Origin: Spirochaetaceae bacterium
GTDB lineage: Bacteria > Spirochaetota > Spirochaetia > DSM-2461
Direction: 5' to 3'
Length of the DNA: 64,000 nt
NCBI GenBank assembly: GCA_051531975.1
Contig: JAOPTT010000006.1
Span: forward strand, 654,977-718,976
The position numbers and the translations under genes are program-made. The stretch's first letter is position 1. Each line of letters starts with the position of its first letter. This document shows positions 2,516 to 23,536 of this stretch, piece by piece. The notes below the pieces were generated by a model. It saw only the letters and a list, made by a program, of their open reading frames with translations, did not search any database and was not told where the DNA came from.

Positions 2516-3076
2516 CTATATAGCTATCATTTTGTAATTATCACTGAACTTATGCACAATTACATAATCCTGCAAATCACACAACGCAATTTCATTAAAA
2601 TCAATATAATTAAAATCGTTAAGAAAACCTTTCTTATTGGTAGTTTCAACAAATAGCGATATAAAACTTTTACTAGTTAAGTTATCTTTATTTAATTTTA
2701 AACATATTTTTAGGAATAGGTTTATATCATGGAATTTAGTATCTTTTATCGAATTTATTTTTAAACCTTTTAACAGCAATGTATAATACTCCATCAGTGA
2801 GTTATCTACCTGCTCTAGCTGCTTTTTCCCTAGTCCACGGTATCTACCATACACATCATTTAGAGAATCTTCTTTATTGATAATACTAATTATTTCATTC
2901 TCTTTTGTACTATTCAAAACTGTAACAATATTATTGATCCTAGTTGGACCAATCTTTATTTCTAGTACCGAACAAGTATTTATCACATCAGTACCATCAA
3001 TGTTCTTATTAAGTGATTTTAAGTGTTCTACTACAAGTGAATCATTAGTTAGAGTCTGTTCTCTAGTTTTACCCAT
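2516..3076 (-). CDS. Hypothetical protein
   Basis: 186-aa ORF, no recognised family. Confidence 0.55.
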   Translation of the reverse strand: MGKTREQTLTNDSLVVEHLKSLNKNIDGTDVINTCSVLEIKIGPTRINNIVTVLNSTKENEIISIINKEDSLNDVYGRYRGLGKKQLEQVDNSLMEYYTLLLKGLKINSIKDTKFHDINLFLKICLKLNKDNLTSKSFISLFVETTNKKGFLNDFNYIDFNEIALCDLQDYVIVHKFSDNYKMIAI

Positions 3077-3209
3077 AATAGAAAGCTATATAAAAAAAGG
3101 TTTTGTGTAAATAATGACTACCCTCTTTTGACAGTAATAAGATATTTACATATTAAGTTCTCAATTTATGTATTCTCAATAATATAATGTACATTGAAAC
3201 AATATGGAA

Positions 3210-4711: not shown

Positions 4712-5773
4712 TTACAACATCTTTAAGTATTTCTTATATACCCAACCGGAAACCGTGATTTCGTTTATATAATCAAAGAATGTTACATATATCCACTTTC
4801 CTTTTCTTTTTTCTAATAACACTTTTTGATTTGGGTGTAAAACTGTGATGATTTCATTTTTAGTCGAAGGTTTAGACCGTATGTTTACAGTTCTTGTCAC
4901 AATGTAAAAAGTTGCATCTTGATTTACTACACTATAGTAATCAACCATAAAATCAACTATCTTTGATTGAGATTTTTCAATCAAGGATAATTTTTCGAAA
5001 TTGACTTCTTGATTAGTATCGATCTTCTCTTCAAGTATCACTTGATTACTATCAATTTTATCTTCAAGTTCGGTACTTTCATATTGGCTGTATATAAAAA
5101 ATAAAATACTTAAAATTAAGCTAGTAATAGCAATAAATCCTTCTAAACTTACAATAGTGGGTTTGTTATTGGTTATATGCTTAATTATATTTTGTTGAAA
5201 TTGTTCAAGCCGAACTTCAATATCATCAGTAGAAGTACTTGATGGATCTAATATTTCAGCATTAGAAAAAGTTTCTTCCAAATTACTTTCTTCATATAAA
5301 TCAGAATTTGCTACAAACTGAGTAACAAAGTCAAATGTGTTAAACATGTTTCTATGAGTCTTAAGTTCATCTGAAATATGAGAAGTATCAAACATTGCCT
5401 TCTGGGCTTCAAAAGCAGCAGTTATATAAGAAGTATCAAACATAGCCTTCTGGGCTTCAAAAGCAGCAGTTATATAAGAAGTATCAAACATTGCCTTCTG
5501 GGCTTCAAAAGCAGCAGTTATATGAGATGTATCAAAAATATTCATCTGAGTCTTAAGTGCTTTAGTGATAAAAGAAGTATCAAAAATATTCATCTGAACC
5601 TTAAGTGCTTTAGTGATATAAGAAGTATCAAACATAGCCTTCTGGGCTTCAAAAGCAGCAGTTATATGAGATGTATCAAACATAGTTTTTTGTGCGTCAA
5701 TGACATTAAAAATATTACTATATTGATTAACATTTATTTTACTTGCTAATTTTGAAATTTGATCAATATTCAT
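4712..5773 (-). CDS. Membrane protein with N-terminal 16-aa repeats and C-terminal bacterial SH3 domain
   Basis: Seven FDTS-initiated 16-aa repeats, one TM segment, then 'VNIRSKPSTKNEIITVL...KWIYV...SGWVYKKYL'. Confidence 0.8.
   Translation of the reverse strand: MNIDQISKLASKINVNQYSNIFNVIDAQKTMFDTSHITAAFEAQKAMFDTSYITKALKVQMNIFDTSFITKALKTQMNIFDTSHITAAFEAQKAMFDTSYITAAFEAQKAMFDTSYITAAFEAQKAMFDTSHISDELKTHRNMFNTFDFVTQFVANSDLYEESNLEETFSNAEILDPSSTSTDDIEVRLEQFQQNIIKHITNNKPTIVSLEGFIAITSLILSILFFIYSQYESTELEDKIDSNQVILEEKIDTNQEVNFEKLSLIEKSQSKIVDFMVDYYSVVNQDATFYIVTRTVNIRSKPSTKNEIITVLHPNQKVLLEKRKGKWIYVTFFDYINEITVSGWVYKKYLKML
5345..5680. repeat. 48-bp intragenic tandem repeat, 7 units of two main types
   Basis: GTATCAAA recurs every 48 bp and encodes FDTS(H/Y)ITAAFEAQKAM or FDTS(Y/F)ITKALK(V/T)QMNI. 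Confidence 0.9.
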
Positions 5774-9879: not shown

Positions 9880-10037
9880 TGTGAACAAAATTGTGAACAA
9901 AAAAAATACAAAACTGTACAAAAGCAGACAAACCCATATAAATCAAAATGTTTTAAATCCTTTTAATATATAAAGTTATACAAAACAGTACAAAGCTATA
10001 CAAATAATGATATCAGGTTCGATTCCCTCCACCTCCA
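9880..10037 (+). repeat. att-like unit 1 (arm plus tmRNA 3'-end core)
   Basis: TGTGAACAA x2 (9880, 9892); phased motifs at 9907/17/27/37 and 9969/79/89/99; core GGTTCGATTCCCTCCACCTCCA at 10016-10037. Confidence 0.85.
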
Positions 10038-10045
10038 AAAACAAG

Positions 10046-10093
10046 ACTCTTGTAATTCTATATACAGAAAAGAATTACAAGAGTTTTTCTTTT
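10046..10093 (+). terminator. Intrinsic terminator following core 1
   Basis: Perfect 14-bp stem ACTCTTGTAATTCT (10046-10059) / AGAATTACAAGAGT (10071-10084) plus T-tract. Confidence 0.8.
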
Positions 10094-10107
10094 GATACAT
10101 ATTCAAA

Positions 10108-10215
10108 TGTAGCCAATACTGTAGCCAATACCTAAATAAAGATGGACTGAAACTGTATTTTAAGCAGTCTAGAGGCTAAAAAAAGTATAGGATTCTCAGT
10201 TCAACCCTCCACCTC
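10108..10215 (+). repeat. Downstream arm with secondary degenerate core (module 1)
   Basis: TGTAGCCAA x2 (10108, 10120), ending in AACCCTCCACCTC; homologous to 20732-20839. Confidence 0.8.
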
Positions 10216-10288
10216 TGAATTAATATAATTTATATTCTGCTATTTTGTGATCTGCAAATTCAAAAAGTTATAATTTAGTAGAAATAAG

Positions 10289-11191
10289 TTATTTACACCT
10301 AAACCCACATTCTTTATTTATGTTGTTATTATTTAATCCCATAAAATTGATTGGAGTATTGGGAAACTCTATTAATAGATTATTAAACTTATTAATAAAT
10401 TCATCATACTCATCTAATGGTTTTATAAGTTCACCTATTATATCCAATATTATGATTATTTTTTTTCTTTGCTTAGTGCTATATATTCTTTGCATATTTT
10501 TAGTAATTGAAGGTTTTATTGTGAGTGATGAATTCCAAAGCCTACCGTGATGGGCACAAATATTTCTTATTGTAGTAATCGATTGAACCCAGGACTCTAA
10601 TAAAAATGGTTTAACTCTGAAATAATTTGCTATATTTTTTTTTACATCCTTATTTTCTAATGATTTATATATTTTTGACCAGCTCCCAAAAGATATTACC
10701 TCAATTAACATCCATGATGCAGGTATTTTGGGTTCAGTATATTTATCTATGTAATTTTTTATAAAAATCTCATTGCTTCTTTTAATTTCTCTCCCAATAT
10801 CTAAAATAAATTTTTCATGATCAAACTGTGCATTTACATGTTTTTTTGATAATGGCCAATGAGAATCTTTACTGTTTAATGACATATGTAAATTTAGTTG
10901 AGTCCGAAATGCTACTTCTATATGGGTAATTGCATCAAATAATATAGTTCTTAACTTATCATCAAAATTATACAGATCAACTACATTTTTAAAATCTGTA
11001 TTTTTTTTATATTTATGGGTTCTCTTCCTATCTTCAAAAATTTCATAGTGTAAAGCATATCCAACAAATCTATAATAGCTTACTTTATTTAGAAACTTCG
11101 TTGCAAAATCTCTATTGGAGATTACCATACCTCTAGACTCTAATATATTAAGTTGTTCTTCAATGTTTGTTGGAGGTGAATTATATTTGAT
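10289..11191 (-). CDS. abiF: AbiF (Abi_2/AbiD-F family) HEPN toxin
   Basis: 'FLNKVSYYRFVGY', 'LYNFDDKLR', 'IEVAFRTQL', 'SFGSWSKIY', HEPN 'IRNICAHHGRLW'. The frame extends upstream of the track's ATG through 'PPTNIEEQLNILESRG', so the start is probably non-ATG near 11191. Confidence 0.85.
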   Translation of the reverse strand: MKYNSPPTNIEEQLNILESRGMVISNRDFATKFLNKVSYYRFVGYALHYEIFEDRKRTHKYKKNTDFKNVVDLYNFDDKLRTILFDAITHIEVAFRTQLNLHMSLNSKDSHWPLSKKHVNAQFDHEKFILDIGREIKRSNEIFIKNYIDKYTEPKIPASWMLIEVISFGSWSKIYKSLENKDVKKNIANYFRVKPFLLESWVQSITTIRNICAHHGRLWNSSLTIKPSITKNMQRIYSTKQRKKIIIILDIIGELIKPLDEYDEFINKFNNLLIEFPNTPINFMGLNNNNINKECGFRCK

Positions 11192-11214
11192 AGATATCCC
11201 CCTGTTTCATTGGT

Positions 11215-11275
11215 TATAAAAAAGAAGACCCGTTCTGGTCCGCATCGTAGAGAGGCGTAACGGGTACTGTTAATT
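11215..11275 (-). ncRNA. abiF-type RNA motif (putative RNA antitoxin / leader hairpin)
   Basis: GC-rich patch in AT-rich DNA just upstream of abiF. Minus strand reads ACCCGTT-ACGCCTCTCTACGATGCGGACCAG-AACGGGT followed by CTTCTTTTTT. Boundaries approximate. Confidence 0.7.
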
Positions 11276-11403
11276 TAATCTTAATATGGAGTGTTAAAAA
11301 TAACAACTGCTTTATATAGATATTTACTCACTATTCATGAAATTTTAATGTCAGAATTAATACAACCTTCACTAATTGCACAATCTCTCTTAAATACTAC
11401 TCA

Positions 11404-11559
11404 TGTAGCCAATATTGTAGCCAAAACCCATACAAACTGGTGCAAAACAGTACTAAACCATACAAAGTCTATGACGTTTAAGTTGCGACTCTATATAAAG
11501 TTATACAAAAGAAAGCAAAACGATACAAAACATATTGGAGGTTTCGATTCCCTCCACCT
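11404..11559 (+). repeat. att-like unit 2
   Basis: TGTAGCCAA x2 (11404, 11416); phased motifs at 11431/41/51/61 and 11494/504/514/524; core GGAGGTTTCGATTCCCTCCACCT at 11537-11559. Confidence 0.9.
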
Positions 11560-12032
11560 TCATTTCATGCTTATGTAAATCATTATATCGGATATGAATA
11601 ATCCATTTGTATATGTCCCTGCATAAACTTTAGTATCACTAACAAACAGGCAGTCCACATCATTTGTACCAAGTTGTGCAGTTTCGAAGGAATTTGTGGA
11701 TATATTGTAAATACTTAAACCCTGAAGTGTACCGATAAAAATATAATTGCCAGAGCCAGTAATATTATTAATCTGGTTATTTGTTAGACCGTCATCCGTA
11801 GTAAGGTTGTCCAATTTGTGCCACCATCGTTTGAATAAAGCAGACCATTGGAGGAAGTTCCAACGTATATATTCTGCCCAGATGCATAAACACATGTGGT
11901 AGTCACATTGGAAATAGATGTTCCTGTATATGATGTTATATCAAAAGTTTTGGAAAACGAAACATTAGGTAGGTCGGAAGTGAAAGTAATATAGATATCA
12001 TCAGAAACAGTATTTTTACTGTCTGTAACTTC
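11560..12032 (-). pseudogene. Fragment of a beta-propeller/BNR-like surface protein, frameshifted
   Basis: 'IYVGTSSNGLLYSNDGGTNWTTL', 'IFIGTLQGLSIY' and 'VYAGTYTNGLFIS' are split over two frames; the fragment ends at att core 2. Confidence 0.6.
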
Positions 12033-12290
12033 TATTAATAAATCTTTTTCCCATAACCAACTAGGATTTCCATTAGGTACATATCCATCAATGTAGGACA
12101 GAACATGCTTTCCATTCCCATCTACTCCATATGACTTAGGAACCCAATCTAAACCCTTTTTATTAACATGCAGAAGCAGATTGTGGATTGTATCTGAAGC
12201 TTCAGTTACATCTTTATAAATTAAATTATCCTTTTTAAGAGGTTTATTCATATTTCCACCCTCTAATACTTCGTATTCACTTTAATCCAT
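12033..12290 (-). pseudogene. N-terminal fragment of a phosphotransferase (APH/trifolitoxin-immunity-like)
   Basis: 'VLEGGNMNKP...TIHNLLLHV...WVPKSYGVDGNGKHVLSYIDG'. In-frame stop after the second codon; fused to unrelated sequence downstream. Confidence 0.55.
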
Positions 12291-12314
12291 TTTATCTCCT
12301 ATTGTAATTAGTAT

Positions 12315-12935
12315 TTAACCAAAGTGATGTATTGAGTAAGTATTTTCATTTGCAAACAGTTTACCAGTATTACTATCTTTAGCTGAAAAAACATCAGACT
12401 GAAATATATTTATATCATGATCTAAAACTTGATATGTGTTAGTGTCCTTCCAGCCAAAATATAATAACGTTATTTCTGATACCAATACTGAGTTTGGAAC
12501 GTCGTTATATCTACCATCTTTTAACAAAAAATCTTTTTCATCATATTCTTTTAATAGCCTGCCAATCCATGGATGATTTTTTATTGCACCAATTATTCCA
12601 GTACCTAGTAGTTTATTACCTTCATATCCAGCAAAAGCTTTAAAGTTCAATAAATCATCAAATGATTTAAGTACTTCAACATCGGTATCAAAATAAATTC
12701 CTCCCAATTTATTCAAAACATATAGCCTAACATAGTCAGTTACATAAGCATATTTTTTAGCATCATATGCCTCCGAAACAAATTTATTTGATCTGATATC
12801 AAAGTTTTCTTCATTCCATAAAACAAGTTCATATTCAGGTAAGTATTTCTTCCAGGATTTTATGCTTTCTTTTGCTTCACTCGATAATTCTCCATTACCA
12901 AACCAACAATAATGTATTTTTTTAGATATTGACAT
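12315..12935 (-). CDS. Glycosyltransferase family 32 (DXD sugar-binding)
   Basis: 'KKIHYCWFG', 'DYVRLYVLNKLGGIYFDTDVE', 'YSIHHF'; possibly C-terminally short. Confidence 0.85.
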   Translation of the reverse strand: MSISKKIHYCWFGNGELSSEAKESIKSWKKYLPEYELVLWNEENFDIRSNKFVSEAYDAKKYAYVTDYVRLYVLNKLGGIYFDTDVEVLKSFDDLLNFKAFAGYEGNKLLGTGIIGAIKNHPWIGRLLKEYDEKDFLLKDGRYNDVPNSVLVSEITLLYFGWKDTNTYQVLDHDINIFQSDVFSAKDSNTGKLFANENTYSIHHFG

Positions 12936-13043
12936 ATTTTAACTCCTTCCATATCAATTTTAGTTTGTAATATTGTTTAACCATTAAATAGTTCAGTTGC
13001 ACATCATCTTTTACGTAATTTTCACTGAGAATTTTATTTTCCT

Positions 13044-13939
13044 TTATATAATCTTCTTAATATTATTTTTTAACCGGAAGTGTGTATAGCCAGTAAAAAG
13101 TATGAAGAGAACTACCCATACTATCGTACCAGAAAAACCTGTTTCTATACCAAACTCAGTTCCTGTTATATTGCTAGAAATAGTTGACTCAGTAATAGCC
13201 CCATATAGAGTTGGTCCAATAGTTTTCCCTGAAATATTAAAAAAGCCTTCAACAACAAAATCATATGCAAAATGCAAAGATATAGGCAAAATTAAGGACT
13301 GTGTTTTGTAATATAAAAAACTAAACAACATACCTGCTACTAAAATATTTAAAAATAGCACCAATGGATTACCCTGATTCGAATTTGATACAAAAAAATG
13401 TACTAAAGAAAATATTGATGCAGAGATCAAGCATGCATTAAATGGCTTTTTAAGTATTTGTTCTAAGCGTTTTTGAAAGAACCCTCTAAAAAGGACCTCT
13501 TCTCCAACTACTGCAGCCAAACTTGTTACAAAAGCTAGAGCAACAGGGTGTATTAGATGCTGTGGCGAAAAACGATCAAGCATCCAACCAGAAACTAACA
13601 GACATTTATTCATGGTAAAAACAAGATATGCACTTGTCAGCACAAGAAATGTCCCTAAAAGTCCAACTAAAGAATCCTGAATTATAAACTTATGATCACC
13701 AAGAGCGTGAACTTTAAAGTTTTCATTTCTTGCATATCGGAAATATATAGATACAAATACAATTATGACTCCAATAGAAAAAATCCTAGGTAAAAATCCA
13801 GAGAATTCCTCAAATAGTCCAAGTCGAACTAGTGCAAATCTAGTAATAAAAGAGACAATAACTATAGAAAGTTGAGTCCCTATAAAATTACTATAAGCCA
13901 GATTATATGAAGAAGAATGTTTTTAAGTTTATTAAGCAT
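13044..13939 (-). pseudogene. CPBP (CAAX) intramembrane metalloprotease with 5' frameshift
   Basis: 'EEVLFRG', 'FSLVH', 'ISLHFAYD'. The ATG at 13939 with RBS is out of frame with the long hydrophobic frame (shift near 13885). Confidence 0.65.
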
Positions 13940-14012
13940 TTTATTCCTTTTGAAAAATTTAAATCTTACTGTATATAACACGCAAATACTGTGTAAATGT
14001 TACTTAAAATTA

Positions 14013-14552
14013 TTACCAGTATTCAGGTTTATTTATAGCATCAACACAGAATGAATTATCAGTAATAGATTGGATTTTATCACTTACCAAAGACTGTGCT
14101 AACCAACCTTCTGGATACTCAAGTTTTAAAGGAGCTTTCACAATTTTTTCAGATATTTTATTGTACCCAACTTTTGAGTAAAAATTAATATCACCATAAG
14201 TAAAAACCTGTTCTACATAATTTCCTTTTAAATCCTTGTGACCAAAATTAATCAATTTTTGACCTATTCCTTTTTTTTGATAATCTGAATGGATAGCCAC
14301 TGGAGCTAATAAAAATGTATTAATTTTACACTCTTCAAACTTCAACCTGGAAAAGAGAATACAGCCTATAATTTTTTTATCATCAATAGCGATATAAACA
14401 TGTAGATCATTTTTATCTGTTTTAGTCATTAATTCAAAAGCTAAGTTTCCTATTAACATTCCTTCTTCAACACCTTCAGAATCTGAAAATGTCTTGATAA
14501 ATAACTCTTGTATTTTCTCTATGTTTTCTGATTTATAATTTGAAAATTCCAT
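14013..14552 (-). CDS. GNAT N-acetyltransferase (YhbS-like)
   Basis: 'LLAPVAIHSDYQKKGIGQKLI', 'YGDINFYSKVGY'. Confidence 0.85.
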   Translation of the reverse strand: MEFSNYKSENIEKIQELFIKTFSDSEGVEEGMLIGNLAFELMTKTDKNDLHVYIAIDDKKIIGCILFSRLKFEECKINTFLLAPVAIHSDYQKKGIGQKLINFGHKDLKGNYVEQVFTYGDINFYSKVGYNKISEKIVKAPLKLEYPEGWLAQSLVSDKIQSITDNSFCVDAINKPEYW

Positions 14553-14615
14553 TCGATATCCTTCTTATATTATTTAATTATTGAAAATGATAACTTATAC
14601 TCATTCCATGAAGAT

Positions 14616-15396
14616 CTACTTTTGTGAAAAGATCCAGTCTGCTACCTTTTTATTAACAATGTCTGGATTTTCCCATAAAGGGAATCCCCCTGCATTAGGA
14701 ATAATAATACTTTCAACCATTTCATTTTTATCTAATAAGTTCCTCATTCCATGAAATTCAGTCATATCGTAATTACCATTATATGCTAATATCGGTAATT
14801 TTAATTTTTTTAATTGATTAATGATATCCATAGTATCTTTAGTTTTTTTTTCAGATAACCAAGGTTTCCCACTAAATGATTGAAGAATTTTAAGATGATC
14901 TTCTGATCTTGTTTCTTTTGGGTTACGTCGCATATATTTTTGGGTTACGTCGCATATATTCAAACCATTCCGAATGTGTAAACCAATTATTAATAGCCTC
15001 ATCAATTCCTTTCTCAAAAATTATAGACCTGGCTCTATTTATATTTTTATTAAATCCAGGAATTACGACACCCTCGAATATAAACAGTCTTATACTGAAT
15101 ACTTTTTTTAAATATAAATTAAGACCAATTGCTGTACTTGTATGAGTCCCCCAATATATGAAATCATCAATTATTAGATATTTTAATAATTCTATAATAT
15201 CTTCAGTGTATTCTTCTATTCCAAATGGACCATCATGTTCTGAATTACCATGCCCTCTTAGATCTAATGTTAAGCAGTTGAAACTATCCCTAAAAAACTC
15301 AATTTGTTTGTTAAATATGGCCAGATTCTGTGTAAAACCGTGTACAAACACAATTGTCTGTTTTTGGTTATTATTTTCAAAATTATAATTTATCAA
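14616..15396 (-). pseudogene. Alpha/beta hydrolase frameshifted by a 22-bp tandem duplication
   Basis: 'VFVHGF', 'LDLRGHGNS'. TTTTGGGTTACGTCGCATATAT is duplicated at 14916-14937 and 14938-14959. Confidence 0.85.
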
Positions 15397-15570
15397 TGAG
15401 TCCTCATAAATGTAAAGTTTACATTTTACTTCTTTAATATTAGATATTTTATTACTATTTTTTAATAAGGAAAACCATTTTTTATTGGTTTAAATAGTAT
15501 ATGCATAATAAGATCTTATATATCTTCTTAAAACAGTATCATTTTTGGATTGATTCACATTTGATATTTG

Positions 15571-15630
15571 GTTGTCCATGCAACAATTGACATATCCTGT
15601 AATAAGGGCTAATTTAGTTATACAGACAAC
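15571..15630 (+). promoter_or_regulatory. Sigma70 promoter flanked by two putative MarR operators
   Basis: TTGACA (15587)-17 bp-TAATTT; dyads GTTGTCCATGCAAC (15571) and GTTATACAGACAAC (15617). Confidence 0.6.
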
Positions 15631-15645
15631 TAAAAAGGTTTATAA

Positions 15646-16086
15646 ATGATAAAAGTAAATGATTCAATATATTTTAATATTTCACGGGTGGCTCTTTTAC
15701 TAAGGAGAGATTTTCTGCAAAATCTTAAAGAATTTAATATTACTCCTGAGCAGTGGTCAATAATGGCTTTTCTTAATGAAAAACAAAAGCCAATATCACA
15801 AAAGTCGATAGTAGAACATTTACTAAAAGATAAACATGCTGTTTCAAAAATGATTAATAAAATGGTAAAAAAAGAGTGGATAATAAAAGAAGCTGATATT
15901 AATGATAGCCGAGTAACACTGATATCTTTGACTAAAAAGGGAACTGAAGATATGCATACAATTGGAAATGTTCTATCCAAGTCTCAGCATAATAGAGAAT
16001 ATAATATGTTTCCTAATGAAGAGAAGAAGATGATTCTTAACTTTTTAAAACAAATTAGGATATTTTTTAATGATATAAAGGAGTAA
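15646..16086 (+). CDS. MarR family regulator
   Basis: 'ITPEQWSIM', 'DKHAVSKMINKM', 'DSRVTLISLTKKG'. Confidence 0.9.
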   Translation: MIKVNDSIYFNISRVALLLRRDFLQNLKEFNITPEQWSIMAFLNEKQKPISQKSIVEHLLKDKHAVSKMINKMVKKEWIIKEADINDSRVTLISLTKKGTEDMHTIGNVLSKSQHNREYNMFPNEEKKMILNFLKQIRIFFNDIKE

Positions 16087-16088
16087 TT

Positions 16089-16382
16089 ATGAATCCACTA
16101 AAAACAGTACAGGATCTAGATCCGGAATTAACTAAGATAATGGAAGATTCCAGATTATTGGCATTTACGGAAGGATCATTAGATTTAAAAACTAAATATC
16201 TAATTGGTTTGTCCATAGATGCAACGAAAGGTACTCCTGAGGGAGTTAGAAGTTTAGCAATACAGGCATTAAAAAACGGAGCAACAAAAGATGAAATCAA
16301 AGAAGTAATAAGAATTGTATATCTAATTAATGGTGTTAGCAGCATGTATCCAGTATCAATTGGTCTCAAAGATTTAATATAG
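16089..16382 (+). CDS. Carboxymuconolactone decarboxylase (CMD/AhpD-like) protein
   Basis: 'GSLDLKTKYLIGLSID', 'ALKNGATKDEIKEVI'. Confidence 0.85.
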   Translation: MNPLKTVQDLDPELTKIMEDSRLLAFTEGSLDLKTKYLIGLSIDATKGTPEGVRSLAIQALKNGATKDEIKEVIRIVYLINGVSSMYPVSIGLKDLI

Positions 16383-16490
16383 GAATATTTTAAATAATTA
16401 TTAACTAATTAAATTTCTAAAAAAAATGTTTCCAAGGGTAACATAATCCCTGGGAACACATCTATATCAATTTGAGAACTGGTAGAATAA

Positions 16491-17846
16491 TTACAGAATT
16501 CGATTATGTTTAATAACATTTTTATAATACTCTGCACTCAATTTAGGAGTTCTTTTTTGATTTTCAAAATTAACATAAACCAGACCAAAACGTTTGGTAT
16601 ACCCTTCAGCCCATTCAAAATTATCTAAAAAGCTCCAAACAAAATATCCTTTTAATGGATACCCTTCTTCTATTGCCCTTGATGCACCTATAAAATGATT
16701 ACGAAGATAAAAAATACGGTCTGTATCTAAAACCTCTCCATCTTTATTTAGTTTATCATTACAGGCACTACCACTTTCTGTAACATATATACTTTTAACA
16801 TCCCATAGCTCATTAACATAGCGTGTACTCCAGTAGATAGTTTCAGGACCAACCTTAATCCATGGAAGATCCATTGAAGGATGCGATGGTGCAAAGTCAA
16901 CAACATTATACCCTTTAGCAGAATTCTTATCTGCTCTTATATAGGTTGGATAATACATATTGATGCCTAAGTAATCTATAGGAGCATTTATTAACTTCAT
17001 CTCATCCAGTGTATAATCAGGAGCATTATCCCCTTCTTCTTCAAGATACTTTTTAGAATATGAACCCTCTAGAAGAGGAGAAAGGAATGATCCATTTATA
17101 TCATGAAAAGCTTGTTTGGCAGCAGCAATATGCTCTTCTGTTTCAAAAATTGGAACACAATTATATGGATTATCAGAAAGTCCAACCTTAATATCACCTT
17201 TTGCATTTTCCCGTAGTGCTTTAAGAGCATAGCCATGCCCCAAAAGTCCATTATGAAAAACCTGGTTTACTTTAGCTCTTGAGAGTGTTTTACCAGGAGC
17301 AAAGACTCCATCTCGATAACCTAACTCTGCAATGCATATATAATCATTTAGTGTATAATAATTTTTTAGTCTATCTGATAACCGTTCAGATATGATACCA
17401 GCATAGTCACCAAAATATTTTGATGTCTCTTTTGATTCCCATCCACCATATTGATCTTCTAATACCTGTGGCAGATCCCAATGAAATAGTGTTGCACAGG
17501 GTTCTATGTTAGCTTCCAGAAGAGAATCTACAAGGCGGCTATAATAATCTATTCCCTTTTCATTAAATTCTCCTTTCCCATTGGGAAAGACTCGGGGCCA
17601 AGATATAGAGAATCTATAAGATTTTAATCCCATATTCTTCATTAAAACAATATCATCTTTGTAGAGATTATATTGATCACAGCTTATATCACCATTATGA
17701 TCACTTTTAATTTTCCCTGGTATATGAGAGAAAGTATCCCAGATAGATTTACCCCTACCATCAATATTAACAGCACCCTCAACTTGATATGCTGACGTAG
17801 AACATCCCCATAAAAAATCTTTTGGCATTTTATATGACTTACTCAT
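16491..17846 (-). CDS. GH1 beta-glucosidase
   Basis: 'FLWGCSTSAYQVEG', 'YRFSISWPR', 'TLFHWDLPQ', 'YVTESG', 'WSFLDNFEW'. The acid/base motif reads TLND rather than TLNE. Confidence 0.9.
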   Translation of the reverse strand: MSKSYKMPKDFLWGCSTSAYQVEGAVNIDGRGKSIWDTFSHIPGKIKSDHNGDISCDQYNLYKDDIVLMKNMGLKSYRFSISWPRVFPNGKGEFNEKGIDYYSRLVDSLLEANIEPCATLFHWDLPQVLEDQYGGWESKETSKYFGDYAGIISERLSDRLKNYYTLNDYICIAELGYRDGVFAPGKTLSRAKVNQVFHNGLLGHGYALKALRENAKGDIKVGLSDNPYNCVPIFETEEHIAAAKQAFHDINGSFLSPLLEGSYSKKYLEEEGDNAPDYTLDEMKLINAPIDYLGINMYYPTYIRADKNSAKGYNVVDFAPSHPSMDLPWIKVGPETIYWSTRYVNELWDVKSIYVTESGSACNDKLNKDGEVLDTDRIFYLRNHFIGASRAIEEGYPLKGYFVWSFLDNFEWAEGYTKRFGLVYVNFENQKRTPKLSAEYYKNVIKHNRIL

Positions 17847-18355
17847 ATAGACTCCTATTTAGTATTGTAATCATAGATTTTTATTATTTAGATGTAAATA
17901 TTAAATGGATCATAATTTATTTACTGCCATCGATATTCATTATCAATGAGTTATACTGTCCAATTTAAGAAATATATATAAGTGATTAATATGAAACTTT
18001 ATACTTTTGTTTATCGAGCCATTGATGTCCATATACAATAAAACCTTCTCTACCATTGAATCTATCAACCCCAAAAATTGAGCCTTGATTTTTATCTAAA
18101 AATCGGAGCTTTAATATAAGCTGTTCATCTTTCCTTTTAAGATTTATTAATTTAATATGATTTTGAAGTACTTCATGAAAAACTATTGGATTAGTCTTTT
18201 CTGATTTTTAGTGTTTAAGATATCTTAATAATTACCTAAAACGGATTTAATATTGTTGTTCATAATATAGTCCAGGGTTTCAATTGAAAACTCAGCTCTT
18301 GTTATCATAAACAATAAGTCTAGACATCAACATTTCCTAAAAAATTTATTTGAAA

Positions 18356-18817
18356 TTAATTAATTGGAATAAAGATATCAATTTCAGATTTACTACTATT
18401 CCAATTAAAACGATTATCATATCTTTCATAATGTACCATAGGTCTATCTAAGTTTAGCTTAAAACTATTTTTTGGCAATATGTCTTTATATATATCAAAA
18501 TATGTAAATTTTAACTTATTCATGTCTCCACAATGAACAAACTTAACGTATTTATTTTTAGGTATAACATATTGCTTTAAATTTACAGAATCTATAATTG
18601 GTACTGAAGGCATATAAAAATAACTATTATTCTTTTTGAATGTTAATCCGTATTTTTCCCAATTATGATCAATACGCCTTTTTATAGTATTAAACATACT
18701 ATTAACTTTTTCCCAATGGTTAGATATGATTCTTTGATTTTCTGTTTGAGACTTAGTAAGTAAAACAGGTAAACCTTCTACTTCTTTTTTATCTATTTCT
18801 AATATTTCCCAATTCAT
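18356..18817 (-). CDS. GyrI-like small-molecule-binding protein
   Basis: 'IPKNKYVKFVHCG', 'YERYD', 'IDIFIPI'. Confidence 0.8.
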   Translation of the reverse strand: MNWEILEIDKKEVEGLPVLLTKSQTENQRIISNHWEKVNSMFNTIKRRIDHNWEKYGLTFKKNNSYFYMPSVPIIDSVNLKQYVIPKNKYVKFVHCGDMNKLKFTYFDIYKDILPKNSFKLNLDRPMVHYERYDNRFNWNSSKSEIDIFIPIN

Positions 18818-18899
18818 TTACTAAAGTTCCTACCAACTGATAATAAAACAATCGTTTATTTTAATCAAATTCACCAATTATCAGCCCACTGTTATGTGC

Positions 18900-19300
18900 A
18901 ATATAGACAGTTTCTCCATCACAAAACACTCCATTTGCTGAAATATTTGGGAACGACGTATACCTGTCTACTTCAACATCTTGCCAATTTAATCCATCAT
19001 CGGCCGAAATCTACAGTTTCCCACCATATTTAACACATACCAAGTATGTTCCATCATTGGCAAACCCCATTATTGAACCACCACCAAGAGTATAATAGTC
19101 ATCAACAAAAGTCTCTCCTGAATCTGTAGATCTAGAATAGTAGGTGTCGATAGCTGCAACAACAGTACTTCCTGAAACATATAATAATTTCATATCTGGA
19201 GTATAATCCGAATAAGCAACTACTAAAGTGTCAGCATTTGAATAATCCAGGTTTAAAGTGGTTAAAATATGATCACCAGCAACATACAAGGTTGATGTAT
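18900..19300 (-). pseudogene. Fragment of a BNR-like surface protein
   Basis: 'YYSRSTDSGETF'; the downstream part continues in another frame ('ISADDGLNWQ'). Boundaries approximate. Confidence 0.4.
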
Positions 19301-19495
19301 AAATAATTAATCGTATAAGAACTTTGGTATAGATTTTTACAATCACCTTTAATTATCTAAGGGATTTCATCCCTTTATTAGTTTGAAATTCACCACAATA
19401 TATCTATCTTGTTTATCTCTGACTATTAATATATAGAAATCTTTAATCTAATTGACCAGCCACTATAAAGACTATAAAGACTATAAAATTAGAGT

Positions 19496-19654
19496 ATGAT
19501 TAAGAAATCTTTTGAAGAGAAAGTTGAATTTATTAAAAAGAGTAGACTTAAAAATTACAAAGAGAGTTTAAGGCTTGAAGGTCTAAATCCCTCTGTTCAC
19601 CTCCATGGAAAAACTCGAGCAGAGATAATATCATATTATACACACAAGAAATGA
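19496..19654 (+). CDS. FicA/YhfG-like antitoxin (52 aa, below the track cutoff)
   Basis: MIKKSFEEKVEFIKKSRLKNYKESLRLEGLNP... carries the (S/T)xxxE(G/N) inhibitory motif and overlaps the fic start by ATGA. Confidence 0.8.
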   Translation: MIKKSFEEKVEFIKKSRLKNYKESLRLEGLNPSVHLHGKTRAEIISYYTHKK

Positions 19655-20243
19655 AATCTATAAAGTATGGTACTGATGAAGATCCATATAGCTATAAAGA
19701 TACTGACATATTAATTAATAAACTGGATATAAGATCTAATATCACATTAGAAAATATTGAAGAAGAGATTTCTACCTTAGCTGTAGGTGAAATTGATTTT
19801 GCAACTCCTCCCTATAATTCTAAATATTGGCAGAACATTCATGAAATACTATTTAAGGACTTATATAATTGGGCTGGAGAGTTTCGAACAGTTCATATTA
19901 CTAAAGGTTCAACAGTCTTTTCAATCCTCTATATATAGATCAGGAGTTAAATAGGATTTTTACTGACTTAAGTAGAAATAAATATTTTGTAGATTTACCA
20001 GTTGCACTATTAGTTACGAACATAGCATAATTATATATTGAGTTGAATATAATTCATCCTTTTAGAGAAGGGAATGGACGTTCTCAGCGCATATTATTTG
20101 ATCATATGTTAGCAAACTGTGGATATAAAATTGATTGGGGTAAAATATCAAAAGATCACTGGTTAGAAGCTAATATTTGCAGAGTAGACCTTAACTACAA
20201 GCCAATAGAAAATATTATGTCGGATTGTTTAGTAGAGTTTTAA
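19651..20243 (+). pseudogene. FicT-like adenylyltransferase toxin, disrupted
   Basis: 'DPYSY', 'IHEILFKDLYNWAGEFRTVHITKG', 'HPFREGNGRSQR'; split by a frameshift and a stop around 19920-20030. Confidence 0.85.
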
Positions 20244-20502
20244 TTATTTGGTGTATAAAATTACATTTCTAATTTCCTAGGGAGTTAATTATCCTAGCTC
20301 TATCCACAAACCCCTAACATATACTTCTAATGAAACCAAAACAAATGCATTTAATGTTCTAGTTGCTATCACATTCAATTTGTAAACTCCTAATAATATT
20401 ATGCAATATGAATATCAACAATAATATATCAATTTGCGATATTATTTCTAATTATTTTATTAAATCTTTCTATTTCTTAGTGTCCTTATGTTATCTCTTT
20501 TG

Positions 20503-20661
20503 TGTGACCAAAACTGTGACCAATTGAAATACAAAGCCGTACTAAACCATACAAAGCGATACAAAGAGTCGACGACCTAAGTTACTAAAGGGTATAAAGT
20601 TATACAAAGAGAGACAAAACCGTACAAATAAAAGACGAGGATTCGATTCCCTCCACCTCCA
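20503..20661 (+). repeat. att-like unit 3
   Basis: TGTGACCAA x2 (20503, 20515); phased motifs at 20530/40/50/60 and 20593/603/613/623; core GACGAGGATTCGATTCCCTCCACCTCCA at 20634-20661. Confidence 0.9.
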
Positions 20662-20669
20662 AAAACTAG

Positions 20670-20718
20670 ACTCTTGTAATTCTATATATACAAAAGAATT
20701 ACAAGAGTTTTTCTTTTT
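20670..20718 (+). terminator. Intrinsic terminator following core 3
   Basis: Same 14-bp stem as at 10046 (20670-20683/20695-20708) plus T-tract. Confidence 0.8.
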
Positions 20719-20731
20719 ATAAATATTTCAA

Positions 20732-20839
20732 TGTAGCCAGTATGTAGCCAATACGAATAGAAAATGGTCGTTGAAACAGCATTTAAAGCACTCTAGAAGC
20801 TTAAAAAAGTACAATATTCCCAGTGTAACCCTCCACCTC
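20732..20839 (+). repeat. Downstream arm with secondary degenerate core (module 2)
   Basis: TGTAGCCA(G/A) x2 (20732, 20743), ending in TAACCCTCCACCTC; homologous to 10108-10215. Confidence 0.8.
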
Positions 20840-20916
20840 TTGCTATGTAAAAGCAGTTAGTATATTAACTGCCTACAGAATCTATCTATGATGGACCATA
20901 TTGTCTAGACTAAATG

Positions 20917-21270
20917 TCAGCCACAAATCTTAATTTGTTTTTCTTTATTATATAAATTATAAAAATATGCTTCATCTGGTGTTCTTTTCCTAAGGGAATT
21001 ATGTGGTCTTCTTAAGTTGTATTTATCAATATATCTATTAATTCCTTGAATCGCTTCTATTGGATTTTCATAATCTTTTAAATAAACTTCTCCATATTTT
21101 AATGTTTTCCAGAATCTTTCGATTGTGATACTTTCTGATTCAGAAGTATCTGGGAAAAATAATCCTAAACAGCGGAATATAATTTTTACAATACTGATAG
21201 GCATATCTCTAAATACAACATCAAACATTAGGATAGCCATTGGAGTTCCTTGATTAGATATAAACATCAT
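20917..21270 (-). mobile_element. IS3-family transposase C-terminal remnant
   Basis: 'IERFWKTLKYGEVYLKDY...YIDKYNLRRPHNSLRKRTPDEAY'; N-terminus missing. Confidence 0.8.
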
Positions 21271-21351
21271 ATATAACTAGCTAATAAAAACTTCCTATAA
21301 CATATAAAATTTAGAATTGTAATAAAGCATTATCCACTATATTATAAGTAT

Positions 21352-21669
21352 ATGAATCAGGATAAAAAATTAGAAAAAATCAAGGACATAATAGTCGAAA
21401 CTGTACATCCAGATAAAATTATACTTTTTGGATCACGAGCCAATGGTACAAATAAAGACGACAGTGACTATGATATCTTTATACTAAAAAATGGTATTAC
21501 TAATGAAAGAACCATAATTGGTGATGTCAATGTTGCCCTATTTAGGAATCATATTATTGATGATATTGATATTGTCGCAGCTAATCCTGAAAAATTTGAA
21601 AAACACAAAAACAATGACTATTTAGTTTATAAAGATATTTATAACCAGGGAATAACTATTTATGGATAA
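21352..21669 (+). CDS. Minimal nucleotidyltransferase (MNT)
   Basis: 'IILFGSRANGTNKDDSDYDIFI' (GS...DxD). Confidence 0.9.
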   Translation: MNQDKKLEKIKDIIVETVHPDKIILFGSRANGTNKDDSDYDIFILKNGITNERTIIGDVNVALFRNHIIDDIDIVAANPEKFEKHKNNDYLVYKDIYNQGITIYG

Positions 21670-22042
21670 GAGCATTGATCCAAAAGAATGGTTGAACAGA
21701 GCTTATGGTTGTTTGCTAAGGGCGAGAAAACCTATTGAAGAAGGTATGTACTATGAAGACTTCTGCTATGACTGCCAGCAAGCAGCTGAAAAAGCTCTTA
21801 AAGCCCTAATCGTTAGATTAGGTCTAGATCTACATAGAACCCACTCTTTTAGAAAACTTCTTAACGAATTAACAAAAAGAATAATTATTCCTGAATCAAT
21901 ATTTGATGTTCTTAAAATTGAAGTATATGCAGTAACAACAAGGTACCCAGATGATTTTATTGAAGTATCTGAAAATGAATATAGAGAAGCATTAGAAATT
22001 GCTCAAAGAGTATATGACTGGACTTCAGAAAATATAAAATAA
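21662..22042 (+). CDS. HEPN domain protein, partner of the MNT
   Basis: 'CYDCQQAAEKALKAL', 'RTHSFRKL', 'YAVTTRYP'; overlaps the MNT stop. Confidence 0.9.
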   Translation: MDKSIDPKEWLNRAYGCLLRARKPIEEGMYYEDFCYDCQQAAEKALKALIVRLGLDLHRTHSFRKLLNELTKRIIIPESIFDVLKIEVYAVTTRYPDDFIEVSENEYREALEIAQRVYDWTSENIK

Positions 22043-22273
22043 ACTTCTATAAAATCTTACCTTTAGATGAATATAACCATTATTATTGTTTAAACCTTGT
22101 ATTAGATAAATACTAAAAAGTTACGAATTCCGTAAATTTACTAAATTCGAATCACTTCAGGTGTAGAGTTACGTTTCATTGTAACCAAAATTGGATAGCC
22201 ACAACCACTCTATTGTTCATTATGATGCAGTATTGTTTCCTAGAAAGCGAAAGTACTATGTAATCTTGTCAAA

Positions 22274-22432
22274 TGTAGCCAATATTGTAGCCAAAACCCA
22301 GACAAACTGATACAAAACAGTACTAAACTATACAAAGTCTAAGACATCTAAGTTACTAATCTGTATAAAGTTATACAAAATAAAGCAAAGCGATACGAAA
22401 GCTATTGGAGGTTTCGATTCCCTCCACCTCCA
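22274..22432 (+). repeat. att-like unit 4
   Basis: TGTAGCCAA x2 (22274, 22286); phased motifs at 22301/11/21/31 and 22364/74/84/94; core GGAGGTTTCGATTCCCTCCACCTCCA at 22407-22432. Confidence 0.9.
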
Positions 22433-22434
22433 TT

Positions 22435-22770
22435 TTAAGACTTATATAAATCTTTTATTGAAGTGATTAGCGTTGGAATTGTTCTTGAAACAGTTGTCCA
22501 AATTATTTCATAATCAACAACATCATAACCATGAATTAATCGATCCCTCATACCAGCCATAGCTTTCCATGGAATACTTTTATTTGATTCTCTAAAATCA
22601 TCAGGGATTCGCTTACTAGCTTCACCAATAATCTCCAAACATCTTATTACTGCAAATTGAGTTTTTTCATCGTATTTGAACTCATCTTTTGATAGTCCCT
22701 TTATAAACTCTTGGGTTAATTCCATAGATTTTAAAATATCGTTAAGATAGACCTTAAAATCTTTTTTCAC
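22435..22770 (-). CDS. hepT: HepT-like (DUF86) RNase toxin
   Basis: 'LEIIGEASKRIP', 'IPWKAMAGMRDRLIHGY' (Rx4HxY). Confidence 0.9.
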   Translation of the reverse strand: MKKDFKVYLNDILKSMELTQEFIKGLSKDEFKYDEKTQFAVIRCLEIIGEASKRIPDDFRESNKSIPWKAMAGMRDRLIHGYDVVDYEIIWTTVSRTIPTLITSIKDLYKS

Positions 22771-23063
22771 AGATATTGAACCTCAGATAATATAGATTCA
22801 TTAATTATAGGTTTGAGTGAAGATTTTAGGACGAGATCAACTGTAGTATTTAGATCTTCAGTAAGTTCCTGCTCTAATGTAATAAGATCAAAAAGATCCA
22901 TTTTCGAGGGCCTAGACAAATCAATGAGTATATCAACATCACTGTTAGCATTTTCTTCACCTCTTACATAAGATCCAAAGATACCTATTTCACTAATACC
23001 TGATTCTAGTAATCTCTTTTTCTTTTTAAGAAGTGTATCTTTGATGATGTTTAAGTCTGTCAT
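22767..23063 (-). CDS. mntA: MntA-like adenylyltransferase antitoxin
   Basis: 'IFGSYVRGEENANSDVDILID' (GSx10DxD); 4-nt overlap with hepT. Confidence 0.9.
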   Translation of the reverse strand: MTDLNIIKDTLLKKKKRLLESGISEIGIFGSYVRGEENANSDVDILIDLSRPSKMDLFDLITLEQELTEDLNTTVDLVLKSSLKPIINESILSEVQYL

Positions 23064-23191
23064 ATATCCCTCTTACTAATATTATACTACTGCTAATTTT
23101 ATTTAAATAGAAGTAATTAAAATTTTACTTGTCTATTCAAACCTAATATTGAATTATCTACTGCAGATGTCATTAGTGCACATACTGTAAA

Positions 23192-23348
23192 TGTAGCCAA
23201 TATTGTAGCCAAAACCAATTCAAAATGGTACAAAACAGTACTAAACTATACAAAGTCTATGGCTTCTAAATTACGACTCTATATAAAGTTATACAAAATA
23301 AAGCAAAGACATACGAAAGATATTGGAGGTTTCGATTCCCTCCACCTC
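23192..23348 (+). repeat. att-like unit 5
   Basis: TGTAGCCAA x2 (23192, 23204); phased motifs at 23219/29/39/49 and 23282/92/302/312; core at 23325-23348. Confidence 0.9.
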
Positions 23349-23381
23349 TAAAGATGTACTTTTTTTATTTAAACAATCTAA

Positions 23382-23484
23382 GTAGCCAAAACAAATTCAA
23401 AGGCATACAAAACCGTACTAAGCGATACAAAAATAAAGGCACCTACCCCTACACAGTATATAAAGTCATACAAAACCATATTAA
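23382..23484 (+). repeat. Partial att-like unit 6 (arm only, core lost)
   Basis: Single GTAGCCAA; phased motifs at 23396/406/416/426 and 23459/69/79; no TTCGATT core. Confidence 0.75.
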
Positions 23485-23536
23485 GGTAGCTAATATATCT
23501 AAAGCTGAATACCCATGCTATATGTTGATATAGTTT

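Follow-up and report, generated by a model that had tools for sequence, protein, structure and literature searches.

The repeated units and their geometry

The window analysed here, a 64-kb stretch of contig 6 of a Spirochaetaceae bacterium (GCA_051531975.1; G000 denotes the genome that holds the window and C6 its contig 6), carries five complete and one truncated copies of a unit of ~165 bp, found with a repeat finder and by direct reading. All are on the plus strand: U1 at 9880-10039, U2 at 11404-11562, U3 at 20503-20663, U4 at 22274-22434, U5 at 23192-23352 and the truncated U6 at 23381-23480. U2 had been described in an earlier note, made from the letters of this DNA, as the arm of an attachment (att) site. 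We arrive at the same view and argue that the units are probably the att sites of lambda-type integrases that insert islands into ssrA, the gene of transfer-messenger RNA (tmRNA).

Motif positions were assigned by script, a heptamer being any match to RTACAAA with at most one mismatch. Every complete unit has a pair of 9-mers whose starts are 12 bp apart (5/5), two blocks of four heptamers each and a core; the 9-mer is TGTGAACAA in U1, TGTGACCAA in U3 and TGTAGCCAA in U2, U4 and U5. The second 9-mer is followed, 14 bp on, by the first heptamer, and the heptamers of block 1 stand at +0, +10, +20 and +30 in all five. After a step of 32 bp in U1 and 33 bp in U2-U5, block 2 again has its heptamers at +0, +10, +20 and +30, and TTCGATT starts 20 bp past the last of them (5/5). 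The core of U1 is GGTTCGATTCCCTCCACCTCCA. U6, which lies ~30 bp past the core of U5 and is followed by the core gene pntB, retains a single 9-mer, the whole of block 1 and the beginning of block 2; the core is missing. Scripted placement reproduced the fixed geometry that the earlier note had claimed for the five complete units, as well as its pair of TGT(AGC/GAC/GAA)CAA motifs at a 12-bp period. The 4+4 hexamers it described hold in their 10-bp lattice and 32-33-bp step, but the third heptamer of block 2 is AAGCAAA in U2, U4 and U5 and has two mismatches. The first heptamer of this block is invariably (A/G)TATAAA.

Within U2, the TGTAGCCAA pair (11404-11412 and 11416-11424), the proposed integrase arm-type sites of the P arm, is followed by block 1 (11430-11466; ATACAAA, GTGCAAA, GTACTAA and ATACAAA at an exact 10-bp period) and by a step (11471-11499) with a -35-like ATGACG (11471-11476), a 17-bp spacer and TATAAA (11494-11499). 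Block 2 (11493-11529) reads ATATAAA, ATACAAA, the weak AAGCAAA and ATACAAA at the same 10-bp period, and the core (11537-11562) comprises GGAGGT, TTCGATT (11543-11549), CCCTC and CACCT(T)CA. All these motifs are on the plus strand.

The lattice is confined to the units. All four heptamers of a block in register are found at eight positions in the 64 kb, all within units, and at none on the minus strand; none was seen in 200 block shuffles, and ~0.00014 positions are expected if hits are independent. Conservation is concentrated on the motifs, as the earlier note had held, and is not uniform along the unit. Mean pairwise identity among the units is 0.84 in the heptamers, 0.75 in the 9-mers and 0.91 in the core, as compared to 0.50 in the filler, or 0.40 when one unit per 9-mer type is taken. 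Shifting the lattice off register lowers the identity, and within the heptamers the T, A and C phases reach 0.78, 0.78 and 0.88 versus 0.40-0.58 for three filler phases. The sequence TATAAAGTTATACAAA is invariant across all six units, apart from one base in U6. U2, U4 and U5 are mutually 86-88% identical without gaps, so that their shared geometry partly reflects common descent; the independent weight comes from U1 and U3, which are 64-75% identical, and from the relatives described below.

The ssrA 3' end and the adjacent integrase

The core is the 3' end of ssrA, from the T-loop through the discriminator base, TTCGATTCCCTCCACCT(CCA). Six copies of the 17-mer TTCGATTCCCTCCACCT are present in the 5.46-Mb genome, always on the plus strand of contig 6, namely the tmRNA 3' end and the cores of U1-U5, all in the orientation of ssrA. 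The gene itself (G000:C6:591850-592230, plus strand; found by ARAGORN and, with 148 bits, by Rfam RF00023) is located 62.7 kb left of the window. The window as such yielded no Rfam match and no ARAGORN gene over its 64 kb. In the RF00023 alignment the T-arm of ssrA reads GAGGG/UUCGAUU/CCCUC, after which come the acceptor strand CACCUCC and, as discriminator base, A. TTCGATT is the T-loop of tmRNA, since ARAGORN and Rfam place the ssrA 3' end there. In U2, GGAGGT is a partial copy of the 5' strand of the T-stem, CCCTC is its 3' strand, CACCT(T)CA corresponds, with a single change, to the 3' strand of the acceptor stem, and 11543-11559 is identical to ssrA. The dyad GGAGGT TTCGATT CCCTCC that had been noted in U2, U4 and U5 is present, with a 5-bp stem GGAGG/CCTCC and 5/6 positions complementary; it is a partial copy of the T-stem.

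Identity to ssrA begins 2 bp before TTCGATT in U1 and 0 bp before it in U2-U5, and in units of relatives with an ssrA core about 0-3 bp before it. To the left of this block the sequence tracks the type of the arm (GGAGGT, ATCAGG or CGAGGA), and the differences at the right end (CCTTCA, CCTCTA) track the right flank. To regenerate ssrA upon insertion, an element has to bring along all of the gene that lies 3' of the crossover and none of what lies 5' of it. Strand exchange thus likely takes place in the T-loop, as judged from where identity starts, and the proposal of the earlier note that TTCGATT is the overlap region is consistent with both the T-loop and the left border, although the overlap could also lie further right among the 17 invariant bases. 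The identity block running from T-loop to 3' end and the flanking symmetry of the T-stem are the marks of a T-loop sublocation; flanking symmetry is ascribed to the T-loop and anticodon-loop sublocations in two sources (10.1101/2020.11.02.365908; footnote to Table 1 of PMC4383910). Relatives that target tRNA genes carry longer gene fragments, reaching the anticodon region (loci L013 and L025), and the family therefore uses both symmetric sublocations.

Directly 3' of ssrA follow a terminator hairpin, the pair TGTGAACA-gtt-TGTGAACAA and, ~20 bp on, an open reading frame (ORF) for an integrase, int. The product has 369-374 aa, and the ORF starts ~100 bp after ssrA and lies 62.6 kb upstream of the window. 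It matches Phage_integrase (PF00589, E 2.4e-14) and a SAM-like domain in Pfam, and the R..H.R..Y columns are invariant among 13 integrase homologues. A structural model based on these 13 homologues (predicted local distance difference test, pLDDT, 83) has three domains: N-terminal strands (residues 8-12, 18-23 and 33-37) with a helix (40-52), a helical domain and a catalytic domain. Its best matches in the PDB are full-length lambda Int (1z1b_B, E 8e-12; 5j0n), followed by the Int of Tn1549. By this model, the N-terminal domain is predicted to be the one that binds arm sites.

U1 shares the 9-mer found beside int (TGTGAACAA twice), so that the stretch from ssrA to U1 makes up one island of 72.8 kb, island 1. 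It starts at ssrA, and U1 is its attR-type right end. As in islands recognised by the Islander approach (PMC4383910), there is an intact tmRNA gene, displaced 3' fragments on the same strand and an integrase gene beside the tRNA or tmRNA gene (tDNA). The island encodes a type I restriction system, a KAP NTPase, Mrr, ArdC, three RadC proteins and SSB. A family search revealed an HTH_17 (excisionase-family) ORF of 64 aa (G000:C6:651258-651407, E 7e-14), 58 kb from int; a Pfam search of 52 other ORFs of island 1 at E ≤ 1e-4, which left out the 64-aa ORF, gave no excisionase.

Right after the int stop codon lies an inverted unit that lacks a core (1501-1651 of locus L032; G000:C6:593502-593653, minus strand). 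Its parts are a TGTAGACAC-like pair and heptamers phased 4+4, and the unit model finds it with E 5e-7. A reciprocal case occurs in the related genome G002, in which an integrase gene of the TGTAGACAC type is followed by an inverted TGTGAACAA unit (2441-2605 of L053). Such an inverted unit after int was seen in 2 of 30 int loci only.

Arm pairing in relatives and the role of the heptamers

With a unit model built from sequence alone, 16 of 101 related genomes gave a match, a count in which G000 is included, and homologues of Int are encoded in 26 of the 101. Among 30 int loci examined, 18 (17 of them distinct) have a tDNA just upstream in the same orientation, either tmRNA or tRNA (Pro, Ala, Met, Arg, Val); in the other 12 no tDNA is present in the available stretch. 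At the 17 distinct loci, a direct pair with a period of 11-12 bp is found 45-75 bp past the end of the tDNA and shortly before int; the pair is clean (at most one mismatch in 8) in 10 of the 17, and in the remaining 7, which have at least two mismatches, it was placed by eye. These int-side 9-mers vary in their centre: TGTGAACA, TGTGACCA, TGTAGCCA, TGTAGACAC, TGATACCA, TGTTAGTGA, TGTGAGCAG, GTGCGACCA, TGTTACGT and others occur. The P arm at the displaced fragment and the P' arm beside int could be compared for the same target in seven genomes, and the 9-mers agree in full in five: TGTGAACA(A) in island 1 of G000, TGTGACCA in G001, TGTAGCCA in G018, TGATACCA in a 9.7-kb element at tRNA-Pro of G082 and TGTAGACAC at tRNA-Ala of G002. 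One agreement is partial (7/9 in G030) and one comparison is a miss.

The 9-mers also co-vary with the N-terminal domain of the integrase. Among 17 integrases, N-domain identity and 9-mer Hamming distance give a Spearman coefficient of -0.58, a value that none of 2000 label permutations reached; it is a figure that overstates the relation because 7 of the 17 registers were set by eye and the elements are related. With the catalytic domain the coefficient is -0.01 (14 full-length proteins). The loci L053 and L055 have the same TGTAGACAC and 64% N-domain identity, and different targets (tRNA-Ala and tRNA-Pro). Pairing and co-variation point one way, namely to 9-mers that serve as arm-type sites for the N-terminal domain of the integrase and to 9-mer variants that differ in specificity. 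The earlier note had put forward that the 9-mers are arm-type sites and that the three variants of the window may mark integrase specificities; both ideas, like its assignment of the unit as an att arm, gain support from these sequence comparisons.

An integrase-based search for related loci in genome contigs gave no confirmed relative, and a scan for the invariant 16-mer gave at least 119 hits in metagenome contigs and at least 119 in genome contigs. The unit model at E ≤ 0.001 retained 1 of 80 metagenome and 3 of 80 genome loci, of which, by eye, only L099 is real; we regard the other hits to the 16-mer as chance matches in AT-rich DNA. L099, a metagenome contig of 3682 bp, has on its minus strand at ~2900-3170 a unit that follows this plan in a shorter form, with GTGAGAATA twice, then TATAAAGTTATACAAA and then the 3' end of a tRNA gene. 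Immediately after it comes a different pair, GTGCAGGA twice, presumably the P' arm of another element with a different specificity. In G001 the integrase of the ssrA island (loci L035/L062, G001:C1:158540-159663) gives a match that falls into two parts, one for residues 4-293 and the other for residues 289-374, which lie in different reading frames; the gene is therefore probably frameshifted.

Since the core is the 3' end of ssrA and int stands beside ssrA, the units are read as junctions of tandem ssrA-targeting islands. We are thus fairly confident, at a probability of roughly 0.78, that the units are the P arm plus core of att sites of lambda-type integrases which insert islands at the T-loop of ssrA. 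The core would be the replacement 3' end of ssrA that each element carries, the displaced fragment being left at the far end (attR), and successive integrations would stack such junctions into an array. The N-terminal domain of Int would bind the 9-mer pair ~125 bp from the crossover, with a second pair on the P' arm, 50-75 bp beyond the core and just upstream of int, and the central letters of the 9-mer would set which integrase recognises an arm. The catalytic and core-binding domains would act at the T-arm, the halves of the T-stem being the inverted core sites and the 7-nt T-loop the likely overlap. Between them, the eight phased A-rich heptamers would curve the DNA, directly or via an accessory protein, such that one Int could bridge arm and core. 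The system may still be active.

Several observations weigh against this reading. The overlap can be placed no finer than within the 17 invariant bases. Residues 1-96 of Int match no arm-binding family in Pfam at E ≤ 0.01, phmmer with Int against the sequences of the PDB gave nothing at E ≤ 0.01, and the arm-binding domain is assigned from the predicted fold. At E ≤ 1e-20 the genome encodes one integrase of this family, of the TGTGAACA type; the TGTAGCCAA and TGTGACCAA units may thus be fossils, as they have no cognate integrase in the genome. The ssrA-type P and P' arms of G066 carry different 9-mers, which is the miss mentioned above, and the correlation with the N-terminal domain is inflated as stated. 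With respect to bending, U3 lies outside the 15 most curved segments of the window, the curvature of the units taken at fixed offsets spreads from the 1st to the 20th percentile, and A-phasing is absent or weak in the arms of 4 of 16 relatives (L016 has no peak).

The earlier note had suggested that the phased motifs either bend the DNA or bind a cooperative directionality factor. Curvature was predicted for 120-bp segments over the 64 kb with dinucleotide wedge angles. Among the most curved segments are those at 11369 (rank 1), 22238 (2), 23152 (4), 23470 (7) and 9878 (11), and all five overlap units. Independent of any alignment, the autocorrelation of AA peaks at a lag of 10-11 in the arms of 12 relatives out of 16, with a mean z of 2.1, among them arms whose heptamers read ATCAAAA, GTAAAA or GAAAA. 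Phasing apparently outlives the sequence, which favours a structural role, and it is tempting to speculate that this integrase family leans more on phased A-runs than lambda does.

Alternatively, the heptamers could be sites for a small winged-helix directionality factor or nucleoid protein that polymerises head to tail as lambda Xis does, curvature being secondary. This is possible, but less likely than not. The non-A positions of the heptamer are as conserved as its A run (0.78, 0.78 and 0.88 for T, A and C), the heptamers lie between arm site and core, where lambda has sites for Xis, Fis and IHF (PMC4880445), and candidate proteins exist in the 64-aa HTH_17 ORF of island 1 and in an HTH_17 ORF (E 9.6e-16) beside int in the compact element of G082. 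However, the heptamer sequence shifts across genera (ATCAAAA, GTAAAA, TATAGAA) while the phasing is retained, within this genus a single heptamer sequence goes with four types of 9-mer, and none of the cassettes described below encodes a protein of the directionality-factor type. The local conservation of the heptamer sequence would leave room for a protein, with the HTH_17 ORFs as candidates, next to the structural role that we favour.

It is also conceivable that the middle of the unit is an outward promoter, with block 1 as curved upstream DNA, the step and TATAAA as -35 and -10 elements and block 2 as a leader transcribed into the core. Its transcription would cross the junction, as that from Pcirc does in ICEclc. 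A degenerate -35-like hexamer (ATGACG, TCGACG, AAGACA, ATGGCT or AAGGCA) precedes the invariant TATAAA by 17-18 bp, the best sigma-70-like match is at the aligned TATAAA column in 5 of the 6 units of the window and points at the core, and TATAAAGTTATACAAA is near-invariant, as said. In relatives the best match lies within 7 columns of this position in 6 of 17, and three of them score at least 10/12: L015 (TTGACT-17-TATATT) and L018 (TGGACA-17-TATATT) with 10/12 and L010 (TTGACA, spacer 16/18) with 11/12, or 10.5 after the spacer penalty. On the other hand, a general promoter scan lists none of the sites at the TATAAA column, because TATAAA is without T at position 6 and the -35 is degenerate. 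A terminator stands right after the core in most P' arms, so that a transcript could hardly reach int, and by raw count the best sigma-70-like match is elsewhere in 12 of all 23 arms. Among the listed sequencing runs that contain 20300-23600, none is recorded as RNA. A promoter function is unlikely, and we treat the promoter-like element as a weak lead.

The cassettes of the array and comparison with known systems

The units divide this part of the window into segments. Searching the window by tblastn with three integrases gave nothing below E 0.9, thus no integrase or remnant, and the segments between units are therefore integrase-less and similar to cis-mobilizable elements (CIMEs): they are flanked by att sites and have neither integrase nor transfer genes. 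The first, the Abi segment (10040-11562), begins after U1 with a terminator hairpin and the half-unit U1b (10040-10216, plus strand), which has TGTAGCCAA twice (10108-10128) in the geometry of a P' arm, a degenerate core-like CAACCCTCCACCTCT and no integrase after it. Its cargo is an abortive-infection-like protein of 279 aa, Abi_2 (10289-11128, minus strand; PF07751, E 2.2e-53). A 9-kb block with U3 as its right end (11565-20663) encodes a GH1 protein, MarR, GNAT, a CAAX protease and a Cass2-family protein. Cassette A (20664-22434, right end U4) opens with a terminator hairpin and the half-unit U3b (20664-20840, plus strand), which has the pair TGTAGCCAG/TGTAGCCAA and a degenerate core and is a copy (92%/83%) of 10018-10216; it contains an rve_3 fragment and an MNT/HEPN pair. 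In cassette B (22435-23352, right end U5), a HepT-like protein (22435-22770) and a nucleotidyltransferase (22767-23063), both on the minus strand, are partners of a toxin-antitoxin pair. The fifth segment, between U5 and U6, is nearly empty. U1b pairs with U2 and U3b with U4, in both cases through TGTAGCCAA.

At the ends of the half-units (10148-10216 and 20772-20840), copies with 83% identity, the core-like CAACCCTCCACCTCT follows the 9-mer pair after ~70 bp, at the place where an integrase gene is expected; on the sequence, it may be a deletion scar or a short variant of an att site.

One may ask whether the array is a working integron-like platform, in which cassettes are captured, excised and reordered in trans by the integrases of ssrA islands. 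There are five core-bounded segments and no integrase in the window, the cargo (Abi, two MNT/HEPN pairs, a Cass2-family protein) is typical of cassettes, and cassette A and the Abi cassette have matching 9-mers on both arms. Moreover, a 4.3-kb contig of run X2 carries cassette B (22447-23298) followed by cassette A (20637-22436), the reverse of the order in the window, with ~90.5% and ~95.7% identity to it and both joints at units. This swapped order indicates that the modules are discrete and bounded by cores. Against a platform in operation speak the lack of a cognate integrase for TGTAGCCAA or TGTGACCAA in the genome and the synteny of the Abi segment and its flanking units with the sister species G001 at 78% identity, where the array ends, which argues for an old, vertically inherited cassette. 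In addition, cassette B and the 9-kb block are without P' arm sites, the sequencing runs examined contained no circular joint, and more than three units occur in G000 only among the 101 related genomes. We consider such a platform rather improbable. The bolder version is doubtful, namely a live gene-capture platform in which the cassettes (Abi, toxin-antitoxin pairs, the metabolic 9-kb block), each with a complete and intrinsically curved P-arm/core site, would be moved in trans by the integrase of any resident or visiting ssrA island and the 9-mer variant would be the address label for the integrase. A further contig, from run X1, in which a U3-type unit is joined to the right flank of U4, was not counted: its placement is ambiguous owing to the repeats, its depth is 11 versus ~35, its shorter side is 30 nt and the T-loop region seems to be 5 nt short.

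That the repeats are not att arms at all but transposon ends, replication iterons or folded sites of the attC type is hardly credible: the 9-mers do start with TGT as many transposon termini do and direct repeats of fixed period do resemble iterons, but every complete unit ends in the exact 3' end of ssrA in the orientation of that gene, the same architecture stands beside tyrosine integrases at tRNA-Pro, tRNA-Ala and other targets, either strand of U2 and of U4, folded singly, is no more stable than its shuffles (4/4 folds, z between -0.4 and -1.6), and no transposase or Rep gene goes with the units.

Some further features of the segments and of the window are worth recording. The Cass2/GyrI-like protein of the 9-kb block (18356-18817, minus strand, E 3.5e-11) is annotated as an 'integron-associated effector binding protein' and belongs to a family that is otherwise known from the cassettes of integrons. 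A terminator-like hairpin with a T run (11226-11241, minus strand) lies in the leader of Abi_2, upstream of the annotated start and on the side of U2; it may act as an attenuator or terminate a short transcript. An alpha/beta-hydrolase gene (14616-15396, minus strand) is split into overlapping ORFs of 157 and 133 aa, and the split coincides with a perfect 22-bp tandem duplication at 14916-14960 (TRF: 2.0 copies, 100%), which probably broke the gene. Finally, the ORF at 4712-5773 (minus strand) contains seven 48-bp coding repeats at 5262-5741, with 16-residue units such as AAFEAQKAMFDTSYIT; its product has 353 aa and a C-terminal SH3_3 domain.

The array offers a compact comparative view of how one integrase family builds its att site: a variable 9-mer address in two copies, a fixed phased spacer that maybe replaces or assists bending proteins and a crossover in the stem-loop of a tmRNA or tRNA gene. 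The order tDNA, terminator, 9-mer pair and int, with the same pair ~125 bp upstream of the displaced fragment, is a rule that could help to annotate island ends and to pair integrases with arms in marine bacteria that have been little studied. The cassette-like remnants may represent defence genes that are mobilised in trans. Current understanding is not overturned by any of this. According to PMC4383910, displaced tDNA fragments mark the ends of islands and tandem arrays occur.

The closest parallel in mechanism is lambda. The P arm of lambda is shaped by IHF, three Xis subunits and an intrinsic A-tract (PMC4880445), and common to both systems are a three-domain integrase, arm-type repeats on both arms that are distinct from the core and a bend-prone stretch, here a predicted one, between the distal arm site and the core. 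Where lambda uses a non-coding attB, the islands here target the T-loop of ssrA; each arm bears one pair of arm sites with a period of 11-12 bp, and eight phased A-rich heptamers stand where lambda has its IHF, Xis and Fis sites. Int has 18-19% sequence identity to lambda Int. The KplE1/HK620-type recombination module (IntS/TorI) resembles island 1 in that tDNA, P' arm sites and int have the same orientation, with the sites directly upstream of int, and in that the gene for the directionality factor is uncoupled from int, as is the HTH_17 ORF here; in that module, downstream of a tRNA gene, attL and the int promoter overlap (PMC2951348). Because the arm sites lie directly upstream of the start of int here as well, autoregulation is expected by this parallel. 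Unlike KplE1 and HK620, the island has an integrase of another lineage, another target and an element-supplied terminator between tDNA and arm sites.

The same gene is targeted in Dehalococcoides. There, as described in PMC3146451, tandem islands are bounded by ssrA and its 20-bp direct repeats, and 15 that lack an integration module were proposed to be cis-mobilizable. Both systems share tandem segments downstream of ssrA that end in copies of its 3' end, insertion at the T-loop, extra conserved sequence just upstream of the repeats and many members without integrase. The enzymes differ, being the serine recombinase DsiB with a flank of 15 bp in Dehalococcoides (PMC3146451) and a lambda-type Int with a P arm of ~145 bp here.

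Integrase-less segments bearing att sites in tandem with an integrase-bearing island are also what defines the likeness to CIMEs. CIMEs and the site-specific accretion of ICESt1-type elements were reportedly described by Pavlovic in 2004. Several cassettes of the array differ from CIMEs in that they keep the P-arm side only. With integron arrays the cassettes have in common a row of small cassettes, mostly single operons (toxin-antitoxin, Abi, Cass2), each ending in a recombination site. Unlike in integrons, there is no IntI, attI or Pc, the array is headed by ssrA and a lambda-type int, and the sites are duplex P arms with cores, unlike attC, which acts by the single-strand folding that the z-scores above do not indicate. 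Limited word searches of the literature, which cannot establish that a layout is unpublished, returned general precedents and no description of a P arm with two 9-mers and 4+4 heptamers. The system is of a known kind, and what is new are its details, in the first place an unusually regular, helix-phased layout.

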